Shown here: in pieces, positions 3,008-64,000 of the stretch | Numbering within the stretch: position 1 is the first letter of the stretch | How the letters are laid out: each line of letters opens with the position of its first letter | DNA from: Leucoraja ocellata | Lineage: Eukaryota | DNA: 64,000 bases | Direction: 5' to 3' | NCBI GenBank assembly: GCA_036785375.1 | Contig: JAWMAR010000122.1 | Span: forward strand, 4,526,001-4,590,000 | Made by a program: the position numbers and the translations under genes | Notes under the pieces: model-generated | Told to the model about the DNA's origin: nothing | Databases searched by the model: none | What the model saw: only the letters and a program-made list of their open reading frames with translations

Positions 3008-3379
3008 ACCAATCTCTAGTTTCAACCTTCCTGTGGATGCCCAGGATTATTATTAAGAGAATTTTTACAGCTGATTAAATCTCGTTTTTGTTTTGTGCGT
3101 TACTGATCAGGTTGTAATTGTGTGCAGTTTAATCTCGGTCTTTTGGTGGTTCTGCTTAATGATCAAAGAGGATCAGGGGGAACATCCTTATGAGAATTCT
3201 CATTTTGAATGTGTTATTTGCAGATATTACCAGCAGTCTCAGAAGGCCTTTTTTTATTGTTTGGACAGAAATAGTAAAGATGGATGAATGGATCAAATAA
3301 CATGCAGCTTAATATAAACACACAATGGAAAGCTCCATCATTAGGTTTCACTGTGTAGTTGCTCCAGTGGTTGTATTTA

Positions 3380-3565
3380 AAGTGTAAGAAGGAACTGCAG
3401 ATGCTGGTTTAATCTGAATATAGGCACAAAAAGCTGGTGTAACAAAAAGCTGGAGTGACGTTTCTGGTCGGGTCTGAAGAAGGGTCTCGACCCGAAACGT
3501 CACCCATTCCTTCTCTCCAAAGATGCCGCCTGTCCAACAGAGTTACTCCAGTTTTTTGTGTCTAT
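3380..3565. mobile_element. Inverted doublet of the PLE terminal repeat
   Basis: A minus copy followed by a plus copy of the ...gatgctgcc...gagttactccagc... repeat. CTCCAGTGGTTGT is duplicated at 3362-3374 and 3566-3578. Confidence 0.8.
3470..3505 (+). ncRNA. Minimal hammerhead ribozyme motif in a PLE-derived repeat
   Basis: GGGU-CUGAAGA-A-GGGU(CUCG)ACCC-GAAA-CG-UC/ACCC. The core is intact, stem I is GGGU/ACCC, stem III is a vestigial palindrome (ACGU), and the predicted cleavage is after C3501. Confidence 0.7.
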
Positions 3566-3899
3566 CTCCAGTGGTTGTGTTATTGGGCTTTACATCCTCA
3601 ACAGCAAATAAGCAATTGGTTCGATGTTTAATCGCATGCCTTAGCAAAGAAGCTTGACCAGTCATGGTGATTTATCCTCAACTTCACTGGCCCAGAGCAC
3701 AAAGTGGCTTAGCAGAACAAGAATAGAGTTCCCTTGGTCCTCACCATTCACCTCACCATCCTCTGCCATGCATGTTCTCTGGAGATGCTGCCTGAGCTGC
3801 TGAGTCATTACAGCAGTTTGTGTCTTCTTTTAATGAGAAACTGACCATTGACTGTCATGACGCCTCCCCCCACTCTCCCCTCCCATCCCCCCAGTACAT

Positions 3900-4236
3900 T
3901 GATTGAAAGACCCACAGAGTCCGTTCCCACCATTGATCACCTGTTCACACTAATTCTGCTATCCCATTTTCGCATCCACTCTCTGCACACTAGGGGCAAT
4001 TTTACAGAGGCCAATTAACTTACAAACCCACACGTCTTTGGGATGTGGGAGGAAACCAGAGCACCCATAATTTTTAAGTCACTGATCAGGTTGGAATTGA
4101 ATGCAGTTTAATCTCTGACTCATGGTAACATGGAGAACATACAAACTCCACACAGACAGCACCCCGAGTCAGGATTTAACCCAGGCCTCCGGTGCTATGA
4201 GGCAGCAGCTCTACCGGCTATGCCACTATGCCACCC
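3900..4236 (-). mobile_element. V-SINE with an internal foreign insert
   Basis: Consensus is interrupted at ~4067-4120. Confidence 0.75.
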
Positions 4237-8527: not shown

Positions 8528-8850
8528 GACCGAAATTATGTTGCCTGCAGTCATACACAGAATCAATAATAACAAAACATACAATAAACACAAATTAAAC
8601 ATCCACCACAGTGAGTTCACCAAGCACCTCCTCACTGTGATGGGGGCAAAGTCTTAGTCTCCGTCTCTTCCCTCCTTGTTTTCCCTCTGCGCTGAGGCGA
8701 TCGATCCAGGCCGAAAATGCCGCTCTCCAGTCCAGCGGACCTCCGTGGTGATGTCGCCGCCGCCGAAAGCCGGAACGCCGTCTCTGCTCCGAGACGGCCT
8801 GCCACAGCATCAGCTCCGGGCAGCCGCCCCCGCTCCAGGTCCCGCAGTCT
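8528..8850 (-). mobile_element. 5'-truncated copy of the 23478-24440 family
   Basis: The reverse complement closely matches ~24110-24405. It abuts the N gap. Confidence 0.85.
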
Positions 8851-9167
8851 CCTGCAAACCCTCACGTCTTTGGGATGTGGGAGGAAACCGGAGCACCCGA
8901 TGGAAACCAATGCGGTCACAGGGAGAATGTTCAAACTCCACACAGACAGCAACCAAAGTTAGGATCGAACCCTGGCCTCTGCCATTTTGCCATTGTACCC
9001 CAATATTTGATCACAAAAATGTGATTTTTCTCCCCCAACTTGGAAGGAGGCCAATCAGCCCATTGAGTCTATGCCAACATTCAAAGCAATCCTATTGATT
9101 CCATCCCCCCACTTGTTTTTCTACAATATTCACTCCCATGTGCCCCTTATCGCTCCTCCAATTTTAG

Positions 9168-19434: not shown

Positions 19435-19710
19435 GATTAGTTTAGAGATACAGCATAAAAACAGTCGTTTGGCCCAGCGAGTCCATTCGACCATCCATCA
19501 CCCATTCACAGTAGTTCTATGTAATCCCACTTTCTCGTGCACAATAGGGACATTTTTTTTTTGCCAATAAACCCTCATACCTGCACGTCTTTGGGATGTG
19601 GGGGGAAACCGGCACACCTGGAAGAAACCCACATGGTCGCAGGGATCACGAGGTCGTGATCGAACCCATGCCTTTGGCTATGTGAGGAGTGGTTCTACCA
19701 GCTGTGTCAC
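19435..19710 (-). mobile_element. V-SINE
   Basis: Consensus match. Confidence 0.75.
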
Positions 19711-20262
19711 CTAATTCGATTTTCCCATTTTCCATTGTGTTGTGTAATGAATTGGAAAATGGGAAAATCGAATTAGCCGACACAGTTGAGTAGCAACTAC
19801 CATCAACTACCATCAAACTAGATGAGACAGATTTAAAACCGAAATAGCAGCTGACATCTGGGCATCCATGATGTGTTGAGGAACGCTGGGAGCAGCAGCA
19901 ATGTATATCACCACAATAGGAAACCTCAAAGCTTAGCAACCCCCCCCCCCCCCCCCACACTATGTAGCCATTTTGTTTAAATGGATGTTGCAAGCAATTA
20001 ACAACAATGCTACGTAACCTATCAACCACTTCCTGCCATTAATAATTACTAGAGTGATTTTCTTACATTCCTACACATCAATTTGACATTTCCTCAGTCC
20101 TGACATACACAGAATGGAGCCTGAAGAAATATTACAGCAAAACAATAATGTATAATTGATGAAAGATGTCTAGATTTGCTCAACTTGGGAACACTTTCAC
20201 ATTGATTCACCAATAATCCATTCTGGGCTTTTAATCTCAGAAGCCCACACATATTCAGTGGG

Positions 20263-23477: not shown

Positions 23478-24440
23478 ATAAAATTCCGGAAGTGGCGGCG
23501 CTGTTAACAGCTGCGGCTCGCCTGCAGTCCGTCTGTCTTTACTTTTTGTTGTTGTTTTTTTTGTCTTGTTTTAGCTAAGTTTTAGTTTGTTGGGTTGTGT
23601 TATGGGGGGAGGGGGGGGGTGAAACATGTTTCTTTGTCTCTTCCTTCAGGGGAATGCGACTTTTTCTTGTCGTATTCCCCTTCTCTGCCTCCGTCTGCGC
23701 TGAGGCCTAATGGCAGAGCTGGCGGTCTCCAACCTGCGACCGACCTCAAGGCTCCGGAGGCAGAGCCAGCCAGGACTTACCAACGCGAGGCTGGCCGTCT
23801 TCGGGGTCGATGCAGCGGTGGCCCGACTCGCTGATGCGGCGTTCCAGCTTTCGGCAGCGGCCCAAAGCTGAGACTGCGGGACTTGGAGCTGATGCAGCGG
23901 CCCGGGGCTGGGGCTGCGGAACTCGGGGCTAATGCAGCGGGACTTGGAGTTGAGGCAGCGGCCCGGAGCTGTTGCAGCAGGACTCGGAGCTGTTGCAGCA
24001 GCCCGGGACTGGGGCTGCGGGACTCGGAGCTGATGCAGCAGGACTCGGAGCTGAGACTGCGGGACTCGGAGCTGTTGCAGCGGGACTCGGGGCTGATGCA
24101 GCGGGACTCGGAGCTGAGGCTGTGGCCGGCCGACTCGGAACGGAGCGGAGACAGTGTTCCAGCTTTCGGCAGCGGCGACATCACCACGGAGCTCCACTGG
24201 ACTGGAGAGCGGCATCTTCGGCCTGGATCGATCGCCTCAGCGCAGAGGGAGAACAAGGAGGGAAGAGACAGAGACGAAGACTTTTGCCTCCATCACAGTG
24301 AGTAGGTGCTTGGTGAACTCACTGTGGTGGATGTTAATTTGTGTTTATTGTATGTTTTGTTATTTATTGTTACTGTGTATGACTGCAGGCAACGTAATTT
24401 CATTCAGAATTTGAATCAAATTCAAATTCAAATTCAAATT
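23478..24440 (+). mobile_element. Non-autonomous GC-rich retroposon with internal VNTR and (CAAATT)n tail
   Basis: Starts near CCGGAAGTGGCGGCG, has 18/21-bp tandem repeats at ~23875-24125, a 3' stem-loop at 24289-24331 and a tandem tail. It interrupts a V-SINE. Confidence 0.75.
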
Positions 24441-27719: not shown

Positions 27720-28469
27720 TACTCACACACACACGCACACACGCACACATGAGGCTTCGGAGGCTCAATCCAGCGCTAGATGCAACTCAACTCTGCCTGT
27801 CTCGCCGGGTTAACCTACAGCCCTGCCTGTACTGACGGGACACCAGCGCTGCTTCTCCGCGCTGGCTGTAAACCTGGGCCATATTTCCCGCAAGCCCAGG
27901 CAGGGCTGTAGGTTAACCTGGCGGGACAGGCAGAGTTGAGCTGGGTTTAGCGCTGCTTCTCTGTGCTGGCTGTGGGCCTGGAGGCACAGCTCCCATCTGA
28001 CTCCCGACGTCTCTGGCCACCTCCGGGCGTGGTGGGGGGGGGGGGGGGGGCACTCGGGTGGGGACGGGACAGCGCCGGAGAGCCGGGATCGATCCTGGCT
28101 GCGGATGAGGTGCAGGTCTGTGCCGAGAGTGTTTTGGCATGTCTCCCTCCTCTAATCACTGCGCTCTGTCCTCAGTCTCACCCCCCCTACTTCCGCCTCT
28201 GATCGCGCACCTCCCTCCTCCAATGATCGTACAGAATCTTCATGTCCTGCCCCATTGCCTGCTGACTGACGTCTCTCTCGTCCAATCGACGCCCTCGATC
28301 AGCAGTCCCACCCCCACTGTCTCGCGGAAAGCGGAGATTTAACCGGGTTTTAAAATCCGGATTACAAAAAATAGGGGGGGGGGGGGGGTGATCGTCCCCC
28401 ACCTCTCAAAACAGGGGGGGGGGCGTGTGTCCCCAGCCCCCCCCCCCCCCCCCGGGATTTCCGCCCCTA
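27720..28469. mobile_element. GC-rich insertion, possibly a non-autonomous hAT-like element
   Basis: Right end gggatttccgccccta with C/G-run subterminal repeats. TAGGTAGG occurs at 27712-27719 and 28468-28475. No clear left TIR. Confidence 0.45.
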
Positions 28470-29557: not shown

Positions 29558-29880
29558 ATGTAGAAACAAGGAACTGCAGAGGCTGGTTTACACGAAAAAG
29601 ACACAAACTGCTGGAGTAATTCAACAGGTCAGGCAGTATCCTTGGGAGAACATGGATAGGCGACATTTCAGGTTTGGGACTCTCTTTGAAAAAAGGTTAA
29701 AAAGTGCTGGAGTAACTCAGCAGGTTAGGCAGCATCGCTGGAGAAGACGAATAGGTGATGTTTTGGGCTAAGACCCTTCTTCGGGCCTCTCAAAAAGGGT
29801 CCTAGCCTGAAATGTCACCTATCCATGTTCTCCCAAGGATGTTACCTGACCTGCTGAATTACTCCAGCACTTCATGCCTT
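29558..29880. mobile_element. PLE terminal-repeat cluster (two minus copies, one plus)
   Basis: Repeated gctggagtaa...ggcagcatc...ataggtga units in tandem, then inverted. Confidence 0.75.
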
Positions 29881-37128: not shown

Positions 37129-37189
37129 ATGCATGTTAGGGTTAATAATGGTTTCTCAATAAGCTCAAGTGCTCAGAATTGTAAATGTG

Positions 37190-37400
37190 AAAGACATAAA
37201 GTACTGCAGTAACTCAGCGGATCAGGCAGCATCTCTGACGAACATGAATAGGTGGCATATCGGGTCGGGACCCTTCTTCAGAAGAAGTGTCTGACCTGAA
37301 ACATCACCTATTCATGTTCTCCAGACATGCTGCCTGATTCGGTGTGTTACTCCAGTACTTTGTGTCTTATTTTGTGGACCAGCATCTATCATTCCTTGTC
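37190..37400. mobile_element. Inverted doublet of the PLE terminal repeat
   Basis: Minus arm ~37190-37281 and plus arm ~37278-37400 share a central ttcaga/gaagaag. Confidence 0.8.
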
Positions 37401-39801
37401 TTACAGATTTGTAACAGTATTGGTGATCCCTCCTGATGCTAATGCCAAGCTTGCAATGAAAGAGCTGCATACTGCCATTAGCAAACAACAGACGCACAAC
37501 CCCGAGGCAGCCTTCATTGTTGCGGGTGACTTCAATCACTCCAACCTGAAGACTGTACTCCCCAAATTCCACCAACATGTATCCTTCCCCACTAGAGTAG
37601 ACAAGACACTGGACAAAGTCTACACCAATATGGCTGAAGTTTACAAAGCCATCCCCCTCCCCCACCTTGGTCAGTCTGATCACGTCTCATTGTTCCTGCT
37701 CCCTAAGTACTCCCCACTCATCAGACGGGTTAAACCAACTATAAGGACAGTTAAAGTCTGGTCAGAGGAAGCGGACTTCACACTTCAGCAGTGTTTTGGA
37801 AACACTGACTGGAAGGCGTTTGCAGCCCAGGCCACCCTTGACTCTCACACGGACATTGATTCCTATACATCCTCTGTTCTGGACTTTATAAACTCCACCA
37901 TCAATAGTGTCACCTCCCTCAAACAGGTGACCATATACCCGAATCAGAAGCCATGGATGAACAGCGAGGTCAGGCTACTGCTGAAAGCACGGGACACCGC
38001 TTTCAGGTCAGGCGATGCTCGAGCCTACAGTTCATCCAGGGCTAACCTGAAGAGGGGCATCAGGAAGGCCAAGCACTGCCATAAGCTCAGGATTGAGGAG
38101 CACTTCAACAACAACTCCGACCCCCGACGCATGTGGCAAGGCATCCAGGCCATCACGGACTACAGACCCTCCAACATCACCCCCACATCCAGCGACGCCT
38201 CCTTCCTTGAGGAGCTGAATCACTTCTATGGCCGCTTCGACAGGGACAATCTAGAGACAGCCATCAAGGCTGTGCTACCTGCCGATCACCAACCCCTCAC
38301 ACTCACCCCCTACGACGTGTACGTGGCACTGAGTAGGACTAATGCGCGTAAGGCTGCTGGCCCTGACGGCATCCCCGGGCGCGTGCTCAGTGCCTGTGCT
38401 GCGCAGCTGACAGACGTCTGGACTGACATCTTCAACCTGTCACTTGCCCAAGCAGTTGTCCCCACTTGCCTTAAAGCCACCTCCATCGTGCCAGTGCCAA
38501 AACACTCCACTGCGGCAAGCCTCAACGACTTCCGCCCAGTTGCACTTACCCCCATCATCACCAAGTGCTTCGAGAGGCTGGTCCTGGCACACCTCAAAAG
38601 CTGCCTACCCCCCACACTGGATCCCTATCAGTTTGCCTACCGCAAGAACAGGAGTACGGAGGATGCCATCTCAACGGCACTTCACTCCGCCCTCTCCCAC
38701 CTTGACAACAGAGACACTTATGTAAGAATGCTGTTCATCGATTACAGCTCAGCATTCAACACCATTATTCCATCAAAACTGATCACCAAACTCGGTAACC
38801 TGGGCATCGACCCCTCCCTCTGCAACTGGATACTGGACTTTCTAACCAACAGACCCCAGTCTGTGAGGTTAGACAAGCACACCTCTTCAACCCTCACCCT
38901 GAACACCGGCGTTCCTCAGGGCTGTGTGCTGAGCCCCCTCCTCTACTCCCTCTTCACCTATGACTGCACACCTGTACATGGTACTAACACCATCATCAAG
39001 TATGCAGATGATACAACGGTGATTGGCCTCATCAGCAACAACGATGAGCTGGCCTACAGGGAGGAGGTCCAGCACTTAGCAGCATGGTGCGCTGACAACA
39101 ACCTGGCCCTTAACTCCAAGAAGACCAAGGAGCTCATTGTAGACTTCAGGAAGTCCAGAGGCGGCACGCACACCCCCATCCACATTAATGGGACGGAGGT
39201 GGAACGTGTTTCTAGCTTCAGGTTCCTGGGAGTCAACATCTCCGATGACCTCTCTTGGACCCACAATACCTCTACTCTGATCAAGAAGGCTCATCAGCGT
39301 CTCTTCTTCCTGAGGAGACTGAAGAAGGTCCATCTGTCTCCTCAGATCCTGGTGAACTTCTACCGCTGCACCATCGAGAGCATCCTTACCAACTGCATCA
39401 CAGTATGGTATGGCAACTGCTCTGTCTCCGACCGGAAGGCATTGCAGAGGGTGGTGAAAATTGCCCAACGCATCACCGGTTCCACGCTCCCCTCCATTGA
39501 GTCTGTCCAAAGCAAGCGCTGTCTGTGGAGGGCGCTCAGCATCGCCAAGGACTGCTCTCACCCCAACCATGGACTGTTTACCCTCCTACCATCCGGGAGG
39601 CGCTACAGGTCTCTCCGTTGCCGAACCAGCAGGTCGAGGAACAGCTTCTTTCCGTCCGCTGTCACTCTACAACGTACCTCGGTGACTGCCAATCACCCCC
39701 CCCCGGACACTTATTATTTATTTTTTTATTCAAATCGTTTGCTATGTCGCTCTTCAAGGGAGATGCTAAATGCATTTCGTTGTCTCTGTACTGTACACTG
39801 A
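37327..39801 (+). CDS. 824-aa chimeric ORF: ATG from an upstream PLE-derived repeat, in frame with the truncated Rex endonuclease-RT
   Basis: Listed in the ORF track. The first ~33 codons come from the repeat ctccagacATGctgcc and flanking DNA; LINE homology starts at IPPDAN. Expression is unknown. Confidence 0.55.
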
Positions 39802-43568: not shown

Positions 43569-46500
43569 ACATGTTCTTTTCACTGAGATTCATTTTTACC
43601 TGAAAAATAGGGCCTGCTGTTCAATATGTAGATGTGAAGAAGTGCCTAGATGCTGTGCACATTTAACTAAACAGCTTGTAGTGAAAACATAAACATTCCT
43701 GCAGTTGCGTAACATCAGTAATGTGATTACAACTTGGGACAGTGTTACTTTGTGAGTTTCTGTCAAGAACTACATTTCTGAGGAGCAATTAGTAAATTCC
43801 ATTGCATTACTCCTTTCTTAAACATATTTTCAGTCTTGTTTGCTTGATGATGCCTATTATTGATCTCAAGGTGAATTCTTTATGATTCTTGCTGCTTAGT
43901 TTGCCTTGGATAATTAATACTCTCATTCGCTCGCATTTTGTACAGCTTGTACTACGTGAAAACAAAAAAACAATAGAAATAGGAAATCACAGATGTATAT
44001 CTGAGAAAAGGGCCCTCTGGCACAATGTCCTTTTTGCCCATCCATACCAAACCTATTTCTCTGCATTAGGAATGTATCCTTCTTTGTCTTATTTACTTCA
44101 GTGTCTGCCTAATTGCCTCTTTAAACATGGTAATTGTATCTGTTTGCACCACCTCCTCAGGCAGCATATTCCAGGCATCAACCACATCGATGTCATAATG
44201 ATAAAGGCAAAATACAGCTTCTACATTCTAAGAAGTTTTAAGAGATTCAGCATTTTTCCAAATACTCCAACAAACATGGCAGCACAGTCGTGCAGCATGG
44301 TCTTAATGAGCTTAAAAATGCGCCTATTCCTTTTCTCCAGAGATGCTGCCTAACCCGCTGAGTTATTCGCGCATTTTGTGTTTACCTTTGGTGTAAACCA
44401 GCATCTGTAGATCATTCCTACATATCCTTTTTACGATGTAGCGGCACCTGCTGGTGCTCACAAGTATCGAACCCTGCGGTCGGAATCCGCGCGCACCTGG
44501 GAGCGGTCGTGTTTTCGCGCAGTTTTCTCTGCCCTTCCGTCATTGTGAGACCACCATTGTGGTCAGTTGAGTTTTCAGTGGCAATTGTCAAGACCGTGAT
44601 CGGAGAATTATATTGAGAATAAATCTGATTTAAACCAAACGCTTTTTTGTCTTGATCCGCCAAATTGGTGACCCCGACCCGTCGGAGTTAGACAGAGAGA
44701 CCATGCAGGACAATTACCTTCCCACCGGCGCTGCGGGCATCCAGCAGGACACGGTCAGCCTCAGACTGCCCCCGTTTTAGCCCGATCAGCCCCAGGTATG
44801 GTTCGCGCACGTGGAGGCGCAGTTCTATCTGCACCACATCGCCGCTGATGAGACAAGATATTTCCACGTGTTGGGAGTCCTACCGCAGGAGTCTGCCTAC
44901 CGTTTGCTGTCCTATCTGTGAGACCCACCTGCAACGGCCAAGTACGATGGTCTCAAGTCTCTGTTGCTGCACACGTTCGGGCTCAGTCGTCGTGACCGTG
45001 CGTGCCGCAAGGATCCTTCACATGGACTGTATGGGCGATCGAAGACCCTCCACCCTGATGGCCCAGATGCTGGCCTTGATGGATGGCCACCGCCCCTGCC
45101 TGCTTTTCGAGCAGGCTTTCCTCAAACAGATGCCCGATGATGTCCACCTGATGCTCGCCGGCACCGATTTTAATGAACCTCAACAGCTCGCGGAGACGGC
45201 CAACGAACTGTGAATGACATGGCACCAGGAGGTCTGCACCTTCAGCCGTCACGCTGCACCGGCTCGATTACCGCCACGGCGGCCACGCGAGGAGGCCCCC
45301 CAACCGGCCCCCTTTGAGTAACAGCCGCCATGCCCCGAGACCCATAGTAATCGCCACTAATGCTACTATCACCTCCGTTTCGGCATGGAGGCGCGACGCT
45401 GCAGAAATCCCTGCACGTTTCAGGGAAATGCCTTGGTCGATTCCTGTAGAGGCGACTGCGATCGGCCGAATGAGCGCCTCTTCGCCTGTGACCACCACAC
45501 TGGCCGCCATTTTCTCGTGGACTGCGGTGCTATCGTCAGTATCCTTCCTCCGACCGGCCGCGATACCCCTGATGGTAAGATAGGCCCCGTCCTCTGGGCC
45601 ATTAACGGGAGTGACATTTGAACGTACGGTACGCGGACTCTTAATCTCATTTTCGGCTCCCACCCGTACAGTTGGAAGTTTGTTGTCGCTAACGTTGCCC
45701 AGACGATCTTGGGGGCCAATTTCCTGCGCGCGTTCTCTCTTATCATCGACGTGTGCGGGAGTCGTTTGGCCCCGTTGTCGGACCTCTGCCCCAACACTCT
45801 GCACAGCTTACCCCCACCCGGCCCACAACCCGATGACATCGCGGAGGTCGAGGGCCCTTTCGCTGCTCTACTCTCTGAGTTCCCCGTGCTCCTTACACTT
45901 CGTTTCAGTGGGGCTGCGCCCTGTCATGGTGTAGTACATCATCTTCCTATCTAAGGCCCACCGGTGCACGCCCGCGCGCGCCGCCTGCCACCAGACAAGC
46001 TGCGCATCGCCCGCGATGAATTCCAATTGATGGAAGACATGGGCATTGTCCGGCGGTCCGATAGTCCGTGGGCCTCCCCACTCCATATGGTCCCGAAAGC
46101 GCCTGGATGGTGGAGGGCATGTGGTGATTACAAGCGGCTTAACGGTGTAACCACGGTGGACCGTTACCCATATGCAAGATATTTTGGCGCACCTCAAGGG
46201 TGCCACTTACTACTCGAAAGTGGACCTGGGCTGGGGTTATAATCAGATCCCTGTCCACCCCGATGACATCCTCAAGACGGCCATCATCACCCCGATCGGC
46301 CTTTTCGAATGACTTTGAATGTCGTTCGGCCTAAAGAACGACATTCCAGCATTCCAGTGGCTTATGGATCAGGTCGGGCGGGGCCTGCCGTTTGCCTTCA
46401 TTTACTTGGACGACCTTCTGGAGGCCAGCGGTTCGCAGGCAGAACATGTTAAGCACCCTTGCCTTTTGTTCAAGTGACTGCACGAACACGGCTTGGTGAT

Positions 46501-48014: not shown

Positions 48015-49366
48015 TCTATATTACTAAAAGTCTCATCTTGACCACTTCCTGGTGCACTGCATATTGATTATATATAGAAAAAACGCTGCCACTTACAGCA
48101 GTGATTTTTGGCCATCTTACTCAGAGCCCCCTTCCGCTGCGCAGGACAAGAGGATTTTTTCCATCGATGAAAAATAAAAGACTTATTAATGTTTAGAAAA
48201 TGTTGAGATTCTCTCTCCTGAAGGCCACGCCCCTTCCAGAGGGACTATGAAACCCGGAAGTATGGAGGTGCCTCAGTTCTCTGCAAGATTGGGTGTGAGA
48301 GGTCGCCATTCTCTGTCTGAGCTGTGAATAACACTGAACACATGTCTACTAAACTGTGAGTGGTTTTACAGACCTGTCAGTGCCCTTAATGCGGTTTGAA
48401 AACATAGTTTGAAAATGCCAAATTTATTTTGGTTTGAAAATGCGAAAGCTGTGTTGCCTTTGGTTTTAAAATGCTAAAGCTGGGTTGCCTTTAGCATTTT
48501 CAAACCAAAGGCAACACAGGTTTACCATGTTGAAGCCAAAGGCAACACAGTTTTTGCATTTTCAAACCAAAGGCAACACAGCATTAGCATTTTCAAGCTG
48601 TTGCCTTTGGTTTGAAAATGCTGAAGCTTCCTTGCCTTTTGTTTGAAAATGCTAAAACTGCCTGTCTTATTAAAGTTGCCTTGCCCGATTAAAGTTGTCT
48701 TGCCTAATTAAAGTTGCCTTGCCTAATTAAAGTTGCCTAGCCTAATTAAAGTTGCCTAGCAAAATTAAAGTTGCCTTGCCTTCTATATAATTAAAAGTCT
48801 AATCTTGAGCACCTCCTGTTTGCGCTTTATATTGATTTTAGAAAAAAGCTCTACCACATACAGCTGTGATTTTTGACCATCTTACTCAGAGTCCCCCACC
48901 GCTCATCAGGTGCCGAGGAATTTTCCCATCGATGAAAAATAAAATAATTATTAGTGTTTAAAAAATGTTGAGATTCTCTCTCCTGTCAATCAGGCAACGA
49001 AGGCCACACGCCCCTTTTGGTGGGAGGAGGAGGGACTATAAAACCCATGGGCGTGGCTCAGATTCTGCAAGATGGGGGAGAGAGAGGTCACGACTCGCTG
49101 AAACTGCACCTTGAATTTGGTGGCCTTGCACCCTGCTTGAAGTGGTATGAAACTGCATTTGAATTTGCTTAAAATGGAATTTCAATAAATAGCCATGTCA
49201 ACTGCCAGCCCACCAGCCGTGAGGGAGTGAGCTGCCAGCACAACAGGCTTGAGTGACTGAGCCGCAAGCCCATGTCCACACTAGCACTCTGTAAACCAGT
49301 CCCTTCAGCCCACAACACCCATACTAGCCCCCCCCCCCCCCCCCCAATGGGTCCCACTTAGTCTAG
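48015..49366 (+). mobile_element. Non-autonomous composite Helitron
   Basis: Starts TCTATATTACTAAAAG and ends CTAG. It sits between A and T with no TSD; the empty site gaatta^tattgag is seen in the 5' LTR. A second 5' end lies at 48782. The 3' hairpin is degenerate. Confidence 0.88.
48395..48781. repeat. Minisatellites inside the Helitron: ~31-bp unit with an inverted block, then a 19-bp unit x6
   Basis: tttggtttgaaaatgctaaagctgtgttgcc units, inverted at ~48490-48595, and ttaaagttgccttgcctaa units at ~48669-48781. Confidence 0.9.
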
Positions 49367-49592: not shown

Positions 49593-50245
49593 AGGGCCTG
49601 TCCCACTTGGCCATCATTTGCGCGCCATTCACGAGACCTGGTAGTTGCGGGTAGCACGTTGGTGGCATGTGGGTAGCGCGGGACGGGCGCATAGAGTGAC
49701 GTGGAGGAGGGTGGAGTTGTGTGCGGTATCACGCAGCGCTCCAGGATTTCGTTCTGCACAAAATCATCGCGCGCCACTGGCCAGTCGCATAAATGACGGC
49801 CAAGTGGGACACCCTGGCATGGCGCAATGTCTCACCTCCAACAGCAGCAGAAGCAGGCAAGCGATCGCCGAGCTCGGCCTGGGGCTCATGGCCATTGCGG
49901 ACCCGGATCCACCCCCACTCCTACTCCCAGAGCGGGGCCAAGACGATTGGAGATAGACACAAAATGCAGGAGTAACTCAGCGGAACTGACAGCATCTCTG
50001 GAGAGAAGCAATGGGTGACGTTTCGGGTCAAGACCCTTTTTCAGACTGAAGACCCGAAACATCAACCATTCCTTCTCTCCAGAGATGCTGCCAGTCCCGC
50101 TGAGTTACTCCTGCATTTTGTGTTTATCTTCAAATGAAGTCACGCGCTCCAGACGGCTGTGTGGACTCATGATGACGTGCGCGACTGACACGCGTCAGTC
50201 ACTACCGGCCTGTCGCATAAGTGACGGCCAAGTGGGACAGACCGT
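49593..50245. mobile_element. PIF/Harbinger-type MITE
   Basis: TIRs AGGGCCTGTCCCACTTGGCC / GGCCAAGTGGGACAGACCGT with flanks TTA/TAA. The 3-bp empty site is at 43749-43751 in the paralogous unit. An extra internal TIR copy lies at ~49790-49812. Confidence 0.85.
49946..50134. mobile_element. Near-perfect palindromic PLE terminal-repeat doublet inside a MITE
   Basis: Arms of ~84 bp (49946-50029 and 50051-50134) are reverse complements with few mismatches. Confidence 0.85.
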
Positions 50246-57023: not shown

Positions 57024-57706
57024 ATGTCAGCAAATTGGTTGTATTTTTCTAACTATTTCTCATGAAGTAAAACCCAAATTAGCCTTTGAACTATGTTACA
57101 TAATGTATTGTGCAAAACACAAAGCGCTGGAGTAACTCATCTGCTCAGGCAGCATCTGTGGAGGGAATGGATAGGCTTTGTTTCAGGTCGGGACCCTACT
57201 TTAGACTTGGAGGGGGAGCACTAAGAGTGGGTCTCATAGGACTCCCTTTGGAGAGAGGAGAACTTCTTCAAAGTGGGCATACTTTGAGGAGATTTTGCAG
57301 TGGAGTGTTAGAATGGAGGCACAAGAAACTGCAGATGCTTGAATTTTGAGCAAAATGCAAAGTGCTGGAGAAACTCAGCAGGCCAGGCAGCATCTGTGTG
57401 GAAGGAATTGATACGCAATAATTTGGGTCAAGATTCTTTTTCAGATGTAATGTTGAAACTACTAACCAGCTCCGTACTAAAATGAAATTCCATTTTGTGA
57501 ATAATTTTTGGATTTGGTCAGAGAGTATACTAGGATTGATGTTCACATTTTCAGATCTATTAAATAACATAGTGAAGAAAGCTTATATTTTGTGAAGAGT
57601 TCATTATAAATTAGGATTTATTACAAGAATGAGGTTGTGCCAACTCTTGTACCGCAACACAGTGAATATTGATTTACTGATGGATACTGACTTTCAATGA
57701 TAAGTA

Positions 57707-59127
57707 ACAAAAGTGCTGGAGAAACTCAGTGGATGCAGCAGCATCTATGGAGCGACGGAAATAGGCAACGTTTCGGGCCGATACTCTTCTTCAGACTGAT
57801 GTAGGGTGGTCGGTGGGGGGGGGGGGGGGGGGGGGGCGGAGAAGAAAGGAAAAAGGAAGAGGAGGAGCCCGAGGGCTGTGGGAGAGCTGAGAAGGGGAGG
57901 AGACAGCAAAGGCTACCGGAAATTGGTGAATTCAATGTTTATGCCGCTAGGGTGCAGACTGCCCAAGCGGAATATGAGGTGTTGCTCCACCAATTTCTAG
58001 TGGTGCTCACTCTGGCCATGGAGGAGGCCCAGTACAGAGAGTTTGGATTTGGAATGGGAGGGGGAGTTGAAATGCTGAGCCACTGGGAGATCAGGTTGGT
58101 TAATGCGGACTGAGCGGAGGTGTTCGGCGAAACGATCGCCAAGCCTACGCTTGGTCTCACCGATGTAGATCAGCTAACATCTAGAGTAGCGGATGCAATA
58201 GATGAGGTTGGAGGAGATGCAGGTGAACCTCTGTCGCACCTGGAATGACTGCTTGGGTCCTTGAATGGAGTTGAGGGGGGAGATAAAGCGACAGGTGTAG
58301 CACCTCTTGCGGTTGCAAGGGAAAGTGATTGGGGAGGGGGTGGTGTGGGAGGGAAGGGAAGAATTGACTAGGGAGTTACGGAGGGAGCGTTCTTTGCAGA
58401 AAGCAGCTGGGTGGGGGGGGGGGGGGGTGGGGGTGGGAGATGGAAAGATATGGCGAGTGGTGGGGTCACGTTGGAGGTGGCGAAACTGACAGGGGACTAT
58501 TTGTTGTATGCGATGGCTAGTGGGGTGAAAGGTGAGGACTAAAGGGACTCTGCCCTTGTTACGAGTGGGGGGGGGGGGGGGGGGGATGGGGAGAGAGAGC
58601 AGTGTTATGGGGTATGGAAGAGACCCTGGTGAGAGCCTCATCTATAATAGGGGAGGAGGGGAACCCCTGTTCCCTGAAGAATGAGGACATTTCCGATGCT
58701 CTGGTGTGGAACACCTCATCCTGGGAGCAGATGCGGCGTAGACCAACAAATAGGGAGTAGGGGATGGAGTCCTTACAGGAAGCAGGGTGGGAAGAAGAGT
58801 AGCCTAGATAGCCATGGGAGTCAGTGGGTTTATAGTGGATGTCGGTCTGAAGTTTATCACCTGCGATGGAGATAGTGAGGTCAAGAAAAGATTGGGAAGT
58901 GTCGGAAATGGTCCCGGTGTATTTGAGTGCCGGATGGAAGTTAGTGGTGAAGCAGATGAAGTCAGTGTGGGTGCAGGAGGTAGCGCCAAAGCAATTGTCG
59001 ATATAGCAGAGGTAGAGGTCGGGGATGGGGCCCTGGTACGTCTCGAACAAGGATTGTTCGACGTACCCGACAAAGAGGCAAGCATAGCTGGGGCCCATGC
59101 GCGTGCCCATAGCTATGTACAGCTATG
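57707..59127 (-). mobile_element. Penelope-like element (RT C-terminal part + GIY-YIG endonuclease + terminal repeat), decayed and 5'-truncated
   Basis: RT motifs MGTRMGPSYACLFVG, YIDN and FLD...YKPTD, a Cys motif CNRKRCYTC, and GIY-YIG-like NLIYCIR...YIGETKRRLGDRFAEHLRS. ATGATAAGTA is duplicated at 57697-57706 and 59128-59137. Confidence 0.92.
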
Positions 59128-60602: not shown

Positions 60603-60822
60603 AAGGAAAGATACTAAAAGCTGGAGTAACTCAGTGGGTCAGGCAGAATCCCTGGAGATCATGGATAGGTGACGATTGGGTCAGGACCCTTCTTCAGACT
60701 GGGGACCCGAACTGAAACATTGCCCATCCAAGTTCTCCGAGGATGCTGCCTCATCCGCTGAGTTACTCCAGCCATTTGTGTCTTTCCTTGGTAAACCAGC
60801 ATCTGCAGTTCCTTGTTTCCAC
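60603..60822. mobile_element. Inverted doublet of the PLE terminal repeat
   Basis: caaggaaagatac...gctggagtaactcag on the left and ctgagttactccagc...tctttccttg on the right. The tail is on the right arm. Confidence 0.8.
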
Positions 60823-61248: not shown

Positions 61249-64000
61249 TGAATGAATGAATGAATGAATGAATGAATGAATGAATGAATATGTTTATTGT
61301 CATTGCCCAATACTGTGCAACAAAATTCCATTACATCTCCTACGGTTAAAAAAATAATTTAAAAAAAATACAAACACGACATCCATTGACTGTCTCTGTA
61401 CTGTACACTGACAATGACAATTAAATTGAATCTGAATCTGAATCTGAATCTTGACACATATGTACACTTATTAGTAAAATAATAAATAAGTATTTAAAAA
61501 GAATTAAAAAGAATTTGGCGGCATTTCTTGGAATTACATTTTGCTTCCCCAGTGTTCTCTGTTGGAATTAAGCTCTTTTATCGCACATGGGTAGAAATTA
61601 TTTCAGAGACCTGAATCGCCTCCCAGAGGGTAGCAGAGTGAAAAGGTGGTTGGCAGGGTGGGATGGGTCCTGCTTGATATTTGTGGCCCAGCGCAAGCAT
61701 CGGGCCCTATATATATCATCCAAGGAGGGCAGTTGAGCGTTTGTAATGCTCTGTGCAGTTTTTATAATTCCCTGCAGCGCCCTCCTCTCAGCCACAGTAC
61801 AGCTGGCAAACCACACCAGGATTCCATAGGAGAGGATACTTTCCACGGCGCATCGGTAAAAGGACAGCAGCAGCGGCTGTGAGACGTTTGCTCTCTGCAG
61901 AGACCTCCGGAAATACAGCCGCTGATGTGACTTCTTCACGAGAGTGACGGTGTTCATTTGCCATTTAAGGTCCTGGGAGATGTTTATTCCCAGTAACTTA
62001 AAACCAGTGACTCTCTTCACCATGTCTCCTGTAAGGGAGCAGGTTCCTCTCTCCTCTTCCTCCTGAAGTCAACGACCAGTTCTTTTGTCTTTGATGGGTT
62101 GAGTACCAGGTTGTTTTTGGTACACCAGACGGTCAGTTTTTGGACTTCATCCCTGTAGGCAGACTCGTCGTTGTTGTTTATCAGTCCCACCACAGTCGTG
62201 TCGTCCGCAAACTTGATGATCCTGTTTGTACTGTGTGTTGGTATACAGTCATAAGTGTATATTGTATACAAGATGGGACTCAGCACACAACCTTGTGGCG
62301 CTCCTGTGCTGAGCGTCAGGACTGGGGAGCAATTGGACCCCATCCTGACAGTCTGTGGGCGGTCTGTTAAAAAGTCCTTAATCCATCCACATGTGTTTGC
62401 ATTAACACCCAGATCAGACAGTTTGTCCACCATTCTGCTGGGGATGATGGTATTAAATGCAGAACCAAAATCTACTAATAACATCCTCACATATGAGCCA
62501 GGATGCTCCAGATGTGTCAGTGCAGAATGTAGAGCTATGTTGATGGCATCCTCCATTGACCTATTAGCTCTATATGCAAACTGATGCTGATCCAGGGTGG
62601 ATGGGAGTGAGGACTTAATGTGGGCCAGGACCAGCCGTTCAAAACACTTCATCACCGTTGAAGTGAGAGCAACAGGTCTATAGTCATTCAAGCTGGTAAT
62701 GGATTTTTTTTGGGTACAGGCACGATGGTAGCAGTCTTAAAGCATTTAGGGACAGTGCATGTTGACAGAGAGAGGTTAAAGATGTCACTAAAAACCTCCA
62801 CTAACTGGTCTGCACAGTCCCGCAATACTCTCCCTGGGATGCCATCTGGGCCAGCAGTCTTCCTGGGGTTGACCCTGCGGAGTGTTCTTCTGACGTCCTC
62901 CGTACTCACAGTGACTGCCAGGTCGTCAGTGCTGGGTGCGGCTGCAGGTGCAAGCTCCGCCTCATTCAGCTCAAAACGAGTGAAAAAGTGGTTGAGCTCC
63001 TCAGCTAGCGAGTTGTTACTGCTGCTGATGATCGGCCCCCTCTTGCCCTTGTAGTTTGCGAGTTGCTGAATGCCCTGCCAGACACGCCAAGGGTCCCTCT
63101 CGTTAAAATACCCCTCTAACCTTCTTCCATAGGCTGTCTTTGCCTCTTTAATGGCTCTCTTTAGTTTAGTACAATTCATCACTGCCAGATCTAAAGGCTG
63201 AGTTGCGTTCCCTCAGCAGTTTCCTGACATCCCTGGTCATCCATGGTTTGTTGTTTGGATAGCACCTGACCTCCCTGTTGACAGTGACGTTGTTGATACA
63301 GTTCTGTATATAGAACATGACTGTGGATGTATATTCTTGTATGTCCTGGTTTGCAAACAGGTCCCACTCGGTGCACTCAAAACAGTCCTGAAGTTGGGCG
63401 GCAGCGCCCTCGGGCCAAGTCTTTATGTTTCTCACACTGGGCTTAGTTCTCATAATGAGAAATCTGTATGCCGGGGTGAGAAAGAACGATAGATGGTCAG
63501 ACTGGCCGAGGTGCGGGAGAGAGGAGTCTTTGTATCCATCCCTAATGTTGCTGTACACGTGATCCAGTGTATTTTGACCTCTCGTCGGACACGTGACATG
63601 CTGGTGGAATTTAGGGAGGACAGTTTTTAGATTAGCCTTGTTGAAGTCTCCAGCCATGATGAAAATCCCATCAGGGTGCGCAGTCTGTAGTGTGTTGATT
63701 GATGCTAGCAGGGTGTTCAGTGCTAGCTTGACGTTGGCACTTGGTGGAATATAAACAGCCAGAATAACGACAGCTGTGAACTCCCGCGGCAGGTAGAAGG
63801 GTCGACATTTCAATGTAATAAACTCCATGTCTGGTGAACAATGTCTCTCGACAACGTTTACATTTGTACACCATTTGTCATAGGAGTAAATACATAGCCC
63901 CCCTCCTCTGCTCTTACCGGAGTCACTGCTCCTGTCGGCCCGGTGTGCTGTGCGACCTACCAGACTGATGGCCTCGTCCGGGATCCCAGTGTGAAGCCAG
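61249..64000 (-). mobile_element. Rex1/Babar-type LINE, frameshifted, running off the window end
   Basis: Consecutive ORFs 63166-63828 (endonuclease: GDFN, SDH), 62688-63182, 62017-62691 (RT: [14 protein letters not shown]) and 61598-62023 (PSGRRFRS). (ATTC)n tail at 61249-61288. Confidence 0.95.
61391..61450 (+). mobile_element. 60-bp 3' tail of the Rex family seen at 37428-39832
   Basis: 61391-61420 is identical to 39781-39810. It has a (GAATCT)n tail and a TTGAC TSD at 61386-61390 and 61451-61455. Confidence 0.85.

Follow-up and report, generated by a model that had tools for sequence, protein, structure and literature searches.

The window, i.e. the whole 64,000-nt stretch of Leucoraja ocellata DNA analysed here, carries a 187-bp head-to-head insertion that spans positions 3379 to 3565 between a 16-bp target duplication. 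Its sense arm contains a minimal hammerhead motif of a Penelope-like element (PLE), and a longer broken element of the same kind lies at the other end of the window. The features are:

3362–3377, + strand: left target-site duplication, 16 bp, 15/16 identical to 3566–3581
3379–3470, − strand: left inverted arm, an antisense terminal repeat (pLTR) end with a ~30-nt tail (BLAST self-hits; nhmmer hit 3443–3385; arm read antisense)
3455–3470, + strand: left-arm segment complementary to 3488–3503 (15/16), from folding
3470–3471, + strand: junction-derived GG that, in this copy alone, turns a 2-bp stem I into one of 4 bp (column counts; the family has CA)
3472–3503, + strand: minimal type I hammerhead of the family (the 33-mer 3472–3504 has 11,534 exact copies), made up of a 2-bp stem I (GU/AC), CUGAAGA, the extra A, a 4-bp stem II, a CUCG loop, GAAA, ACGU and GUC
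3504–3565, + strand: right-arm remainder, pLTR end to the inner 3′ end cluster (around model position 100)
3566–3581, + strand: right target-site duplication, matching the left one at 15/16
57706–59122, − strand: 5′-truncated, frameshifted PLE of putative Neptune type, with RT thumb, linker, GIY-YIG, 3′ UTR, hammerhead at 57794 and tail

The right arm is a sense copy running from the motif through the inner 3′ end, and its tail is 86% identical to the nearest reference copy. The left arm, on which the longer tail lies in antisense orientation, begins within stem II, lacks CUGAAGA and has suffered a ~44-nt internal deletion and a short duplication. The upstream initiator-like TCA of the family is replaced by the inverted arm. 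Inverted arms are present in 43 of the 200 family copies reaching C3, and inverted copies as well as one-sided tails are usual in PLEs (PMC8557442, PMC3846280). More decayed head-to-head mini-elements of the same family lie at 49948–50132, 37189–37367, 29599–29867 and 60606–60817 of the window. A contig of run X1 covers the unique left flank (3150–3404), with other letters at 3222 and 3291, and enters the left arm; the left junction of the insertion is present there as well, and this run may represent the source sample.

The motif at 3470–3505 is a minimal type I hammerhead core

The motif reads GGGU (3470–3473), CUGAAGA (3474–3480), A (3481), GGGU (3482–3485), CUCG (3486–3489), ACCC (3490–3493), GAAA (3494–3497), CG (3498–3499), UC (3500–3501) and ACCC (3502–3505). 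Re-reading the sequence bore out the preliminary description of these letters, with all core nucleotides, a stem II and the palindromic ACGU in place. CUGANGA, GAAA and UH stand in type I order, A3481 is the extra nucleotide between A9 and 10.1, and G3482–C3493 provides the G10.1–C11.1 pair. The extra A before stem II had been described as common to the family, and an A is indeed found in 152 of the 166 copies having a letter there. The palindromic minimal stem III (15.2–16.2) is ACGU at 3497–3500, with CG as the commonest pair (76/163 copies, the remainder being mostly CpG decay), and each of the four positions of helix II is paired in 82–91% of copies. From the sequence reading, the cut is predicted after C3501, at the GUC site.

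When up to three mismatches were allowed, the 28-nt core matched five times in the window against 0.00 expected. The only match free of any mismatch was 3474–3501 and no other strictly intact copy was found in the window, in agreement with the earlier view of this motif as the best-preserved copy there. We then used a minimal type I hammerhead descriptor (core, a stem II no shorter than 4 bp, a 15.2–16.2 pair and UH, with stem I not demanded) on 663,636 nt. These comprised the window and a neighbouring 100 kb, another 100 kb from contig C1 that had been picked for richness in exact copies, and 400 kb of blindly selected sequence; all extrapolations are made from the blind 400 kb only. The descriptor yielded 30 matches versus 0, 0, 0, 1 and 0 in five order-2 Markov controls, and all 30 motifs belong to the same pLTR hammerhead family. 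An Rfam scan of the window gave 22 matches at E up to 5, with no hammerhead model among them, and the isolated 36-mer (3470–3505) is about as stable as its shuffles (z 0.07). The motif is a genuine minimal type I hammerhead core and not a chance resemblance.

The hammerhead belongs to an abundant family of Penelope-like elements

The preliminary description had placed the motif, as a minimal PLE-type hammerhead, inside a tiny PLE-derived element, and this placement stands: a sibling motif follows an RT plus GIY-YIG frame at window 57794. In a set of 20 loci selected for their long RT frames, the motif lies 60–200 nt 3′ of the ORF in 16; of the other four, three are without the motif and one was mis-oriented in scoring. 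Many copies have a pyrimidine-rich UTR upstream of the motif, together with the end of a reading frame. Because motif and tail also run on into the ORF in 8/20 loci having its 5′ part (seven by script and L147 by eye), the motif-bearing repeat is a pLTR. Some 160 nt separate the core from the start of the main ORF, which is preceded by an upstream frame of 41 codons. This upstream frame (MLLHPLSF...KVCLL; L145:902–1030, also in L132, L133, L136, L140 and L144) begins within the tail of the pLTR and overlaps with the ATG of the main ORF, which itself lies within a donor-like AAG/GTATG; it is shorter in the subfamily of the window and may not be conserved.

Pfam gave no match on the broken PLE frames of the window. 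In the element protein, RVT_1 was matched with E values of 2e-5 and 2e-4, under Pfam's cut-off, and the C-terminal domain was closest to GIY-YIG clusters (score 0.97). The translations contain a DKG motif in the RT plus, at the C terminus, a GIY-YIG with CCHH, and the RT–EN linker, CNRKRCNTC, is a CX4CxxC of the Zn-finger-like CX2-5CxxC class that is a trait of Neptune/Nematis PLEs (PMC8557442). Judged by its sequence motifs, which supply the clade label in place of a tree, the source element classifies as a Neptune-type EN+ PLE. The RT piece of the 57706–59122 element has 48,386 first-look candidates in the genome, some of which keep open frames that reach 1,073 codons, so part of the family is young.

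The 33-mer is found in its 11,534 exact copies in a 3.44-Gb genome, and an intact-core 35-mer pattern over subfamily variants in 31,053 exact copies genome-wide, with no copy of the reversed control in either case. A profile of the motif and its downstream sequence gave 380 matches in 664 kb; the 188 arms in the blind 400 kb make up 4.5% of its bases, which extrapolates to ~1.6 million family arms genome-wide. Intact hammerheads are extrapolated, from 15 hits in the 400 kb, at about 129,000 (72,000–213,000). The copy number is accordingly at least 31,053 exact copies here versus about 4,000 in coelacanth and 9,000 in Xenopus (PMC4209133).

Numbers of this order, up to 126,247 in axolotl, are given in the literature on non-LTR retrozymes (Cervera and De la Peña 2020, PMC7229834; Li et al. 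2026, bioRxiv 10.64898/2026.07.22.740005), which share type I hammerheads and a PLE origin with the family described here. A derivation of retrozymes from PLE pLTRs, and their presence in one chondrichthyan genome, have been reported, and the locus could in principle be one of them, with tandem hammerhead repeats that spread via circular RNA. We find this hardly credible, given that the locus has no tandem array or direct repeat, that its arms stand head to head, and that none of the 17 strictly intact copies in 664 kb is a tandem unit. Two same-strand pairs among these 17 fall within one 10-kb stretch, spaced by 0.95 and 5.6 kb. In retrozymes the units are repeated directly and in tandem, mostly with canonical hammerheads, whereas the copy here is dispersed, inverted and minimal.

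Stem I is 2 bp long in the family and dispersed copies decay neutrally

In the family, CAGU precedes the core and the cut is followed by ACC or GCC, which gives a 2-bp stem I. Among the 30 intact motifs, stem I is 2 bp long in 20, 0–1 bp in seven and 3 bp in two, and reaches 4 bp only at 3470. The 4-bp stem I that had been presented as a feature of the ribozyme is therefore not one of the family, in which stem I positions 3 and 4 pair in just 6% of 128 and 2% of 108 copies; in the 3470 copy it is an accident of the junction with the inverted arm. A longer stem I, formed by UCAGU with a downstream GCUGA, was considered and set aside, as no UH triplet was seen before it by eye.

For the analysis of decay, 47 of 361 hits were dropped (short tail match or proximity to the end of a stretch), leaving 314 tail-anchored copies, of which 171 span the motif. 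In these 171, non-CpG core columns match at 1559/1673 positions (0.932) and the invariant tail at 4124/4416 (0.934). G12, C11.1, C15.2 and G16.2 are brought down to 0.69–0.76 by CpG decay, G12 being kept in 121/166 copies. The excess conservation of core positions and the stem II covariation by which the preliminary description was to be judged are thus negative at the level of dispersed copies. Equal decay of core and tail speaks against selection on single copies; it does not speak against a role in the source element. Dispersed copies decay neutrally, and source elements with unrelated UTRs have kept the core.

Subfamilies differ in loop II, in U-A versus U-G pairs, where the change is one-sided, and in H17, which is C or U. 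Neither subfamilies nor copies offered a convincing two-sided compensatory change in the stems, and the subfamilies may be too close to one another to show any; there were no clear doubles at II.2–II.4 among copies. At G10.1–C11.1, seven A-U doubles in 162 copies stand against ~2.5 expected by a hand estimate, an excess for which CpG decay and copy age are confounders. A candidate compensatory C2.1–G1.1 pair, seen in L144–L146, was rejected: C2.1 is found in 693 copies versus 31,053 and mostly pairs with A1.1, with G1.1 in 34 of the first 100 C2.1 copies (hand count; the two lists of 100 come from different genome regions).

The 3470 copy itself has no change over 32 hammerhead positions and a tail that is 14% diverged. 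Equally clean copies make up 3/71 of those with similar tail identity, the 3470 copy among them. Such a clean hammerhead fits the choice of the best of ~40 window copies, and local constraint is possible.

The inverted arm is predicted to block the fold of this copy

The preliminary description further took the locus for a working ribozyme. Folding predictions point the other way, with the hammerhead fold lost to pairing of 3455–3470 with 3488–3503. The test RNA that had been proposed, 3455–3530, is predicted to form this hairpin at −29.7 kcal/mol, by which the left arm would sequester the 3′ strand of stem II, GAAAC and the GUC site. The predicted fraction of hammerhead fold is 18% in the bare 36-mer, 5.7e-6 when the RNA starts from 3460, 1.3e-10 in 3455–3530 and 1.3e-12 in 3381–3565. 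The ViennaRNA energies leave out tertiary contacts and proteins, and ordinary family copies also disfavour the hammerhead fold (ViennaRNA stem II probability with a median of 0.007, exceeding 0.1 in 6/47), so that a poor predicted fold alone is no proof of inactivity. Because the left arm is predicted to pair over its core, the copy at 3470–3505 is nevertheless likely to be inactive, i.e. unable to cut.

Could the copy still be active, cutting a host or element transcript as an ACGU dimer with help from its chance 4-bp stem I? All its core bases are intact, the 36-mer is hammerhead-compatible in 18% of the ensemble, it is cleaner than 68/71 copies of similar age, and thousands of identical partners are available in trans. 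However, 10–15 nt of upstream sequence are predicted to destroy the fold (5.7e-6, 1.3e-10), and the initiator-like TCA upstream has given way to the inverted arm. Co-folding of two 36-mers favours a non-hammerhead dimer at −29.1 kcal/mol over a dimer with one active site at −15.0 kcal/mol. Moreover, the minimal hammerheads of PLEs in published work do not cut as monomers and have low activity as dimers (PMC4209133), and 8/9 Xenopus dimers reportedly did not cut. An active 3470 copy is, in our judgement, very improbable.

In natural copies of the family, a competing hairpin of GAAGAA with downstream pyrimidines dominates the predictions (median 0.78). This hairpin, formed by GAAGAAGGG with a downstream pyrimidine run (e.g. 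window 3476–3485 with 3502–3516), turns up in the predictions for the two main subfamilies alike. A tendency of positions 11.4 and 1.1 to change in step (A/A or G/G) may reflect an on-off switch or subfamily history alone.

Copy ends point to an RNA that probably starts at the hammerhead and is copied uncut

The starts of three BLAST hits in the window appeared to coincide with the cut site, as would be expected of a cleavage footprint; no peak of 5′ ends at the cut site was found among the 314 tail-anchored copies, and the footprint was rejected. Model positions 33–37 hold 13/314 of the 5′ ends (2.6 per position) and positions 21–32 hold 41 (3.4 per position), while 182/314 copies, UTR-bearing ones counted, have their 5′ ends at or before position 8. 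In bare copies, with neither UTR nor inverted arm (n = 106), A at −3 has a frequency of 0.76 and C at −4 of 0.49, and composition is close to background from −6; in UTR-bearing copies (n = 51) both letters stand at 0.88. Four ORF-bearing loci, two of them near-duplicates, begin at the same edge before the core. Target duplications were detected in 18/104 bare copies versus 15/307 in the control, and 8/18 of them end at −1 to −7, the other ten further upstream. At the 3′ side, ends cluster at 96–105 (26/104) and at 128–132 (36/104), and the references end at ~132.

The letters of the edge are TCAGTCT, or CCAGTCT as a variant. Both fit the initiator consensus, YYANWYY, with the A as +1. The RNA of the element therefore seems likely, on this sequence evidence, to start 3 nt upstream of the core, with the A of TCAGT as its first nucleotide; a start there would explain why stem I has no more than 2 bp. 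Taken together, the sharp edge before the core and the lack of a pile-up at the cut site make it likely that the RNA starts at the ribozyme and that new copies are made from uncut template. Other sources of the edge fared less well. Cutting in trans at NUC/AGU was rejected as one subfamily has ACC/AGU, which fits the initiator and not NUH, and a cap-derived extra G at −4 is not enriched (0.11).

As the main alternative, the edge could be a 3′ splice site, with its pyrimidine tract and CAG, as in Penelope of Drosophila virilis, splicing supplying the other strand of stem I. The UTR is pyrimidine-rich and CAG is invariant in all subfamilies, and the D. virilis Penelope intron ends at helix I (PMC4209133, PMC8557442). 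Yet bare copies share no common upstream exon, their composition being that of background from −6 outward, and target duplications adjoin the edge. One search for candidate junctions between ORF end and hammerhead gave two hits, of which the one that was read, L151, proved to be an unspliced UTR variant; this counts for little, since PLEs retain introns in genomic copies. Contigs of sequencing runs gave, among the matches listed, no GT-AG joints and no starts or ends, and weigh on neither side. On the whole we regard a splice site as decidedly unlikely, and an RNA start at TCAGT as the better account of the edge.

Discussion

We conclude, with a probability of roughly 0.85 that includes the proposed origin, that the motif at 3470 is the minimal hammerhead (min-HHR) of the terminal repeat of a Neptune-type PLE, lying in a decaying 187-bp palindrome and probably inactive. 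Ribozymes of this type have been in print since 2014, and the locus is an ordinary relic among tens of thousands. As regards its origin, the RNA of the source element probably started at the A of TCAGT, 3 nt 5′ of the core. By analogy with the Anolis element, in which reverse transcription starts at two internal sites and the hammerhead cuts only with protein (PMC11167929), the RT-endonuclease probably used both ends of the cut target to prime cDNA, at internal sites that lie ~100 and ~130 nt downstream. One cDNA would have reached the 5′ end of the RNA to give the right arm and the other would have stopped within stem II to give the left arm, the two being joined head to head between the 16-bp target duplication, an arrangement that is itself observed. 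By analogy with other PLEs, the hammerhead of the source element probably cuts only weakly, either as an ACGU dimer or with help from the element protein, and uncut RNA would be the likely template for new copies.

The family shares with the min-HHRs of metazoan PLE pLTRs (Cervera and De la Peña 2014, PMC4209133) the type I core, the extra nucleotide at 9/10.1, G10.1–C11.1, a palindromic 15.2–16.2 without loop III, the pLTR position, and the occurrence mostly as solo relics with some close pairs on opposite strands. It differs in helix II, which has 4 bp here versus 7–8, and in helix I, with 2 bp here versus 4–5 bp in the Schistosoma examples, 2 bp being described there only for a D. virilis variant. 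All the defining sequence features of the 2014 min-HHRs can thus be read here except the typical length of helix I. The 2-bp helix I suggests that descriptors requiring a longer helix I undercount such motifs.

Poseidon of Anolis carolinensis (PAc; Frangieh et al. 2024, PMC11167929) is alike in its hammerhead at the pLTR-ORF junction, its two internal 3′ end sites around a ~30-nt tail and the lack of ends at the cut site, and probably also in the extension of both target strands and an uncut RNA template. Unlike PAc, it has a Neptune-type linker, and the main ORF starts not within stem II but ~160 nt after the core. With other Neptune EN+ PLEs (Craig et al. 2021, PMC8557442; Arkhipova et al. 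2013, PMC3846280) it has in common the C-terminal GIY-YIG, DKG and the CxxC linker, as well as partial tandems, inverted 5′-truncated copies, a one-sided tail, palindromic junctions and an initiator-like sequence in the pLTR; compared with these, the window copy is an extreme miniature reduced to two pLTR ends. No passage on a start site 3 nt before the hammerhead core was found in the available text of these two papers, and a literature search that covered part of the supplements found none on a start site at the hammerhead edge. Likewise, a search of the literature, readable supplements included and Repbase and Dfam lying outside its scope, found no description of this PLE family in cartilaginous fish.

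The role of PLE hammerheads has been stated as an open question (PMC8557442). The copy ends of the family provide a genome-scale readout that bears on it: their sharp 5′ edge, with no excess at the cut site, agrees with the in vitro work on uncut template. One answer would be that the family motif is hammerhead-derived and no longer cleaves, and that it is kept in source elements as part of a promoter, of the 5′ UTR or of a protein-binding site. Stem I is merely 2 bp long, no two-sided covariation was found, the alternative hairpin dominates natural copies in prediction (median 0.78), ends do not pile up at the cut, and hammerhead mutants of the Anolis element left insertion in vitro unaffected (PMC11167929). 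Against this, subfamilies with unrelated UTRs keep every core base and vary only where a hammerhead tolerates change, the PLE hammerhead of D. virilis likewise has a helix I of 2 bp (PMC4209133), and the Anolis hammerhead does cut once its protein is added (PMC11167929). We therefore hold loss of cleavage in the family to be unlikely, and retain a hammerhead that probably cuts weakly in the source element. More tentatively, and with doubt on our side outweighing confidence, the hammerhead may be the first 36 nt of the element mRNA and its cleavage a removal of the cap in place of a release of monomers out of a tandem precursor, an off-switch triggered by the dimer or by protein, such that only uncut RNA is copied. 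If this were true, the estimated 1.6 million arms would form a fossil record against which to test what PLE hammerheads do.

Other features of the window

A LINE RT frame of 833 codons lies at 37300–39801 on the + strand (RVT_1 E 6e-34, ALKBH8_N E 5e-15), and a broken relative at 61598–63212 on the − strand. A GC-rich stretch at 44692–45923 contains overlapping frames, one of which reads like the gag region of an LTR retrotransposon. Long hairpins or palindromic repeats at 19691–19793, 27784–27942 and 48420–48803, the last with 31-bp and 19-bp tandem units at 48428–48803, gave hits to miRNA models far under the cut-offs and are likely non-autonomous DNA transposons. Finally, a GC-rich tandem array of ~12 copies of a 21-bp unit, at 23853–24117, lies inside a repeat that is also present near 8658–9098.
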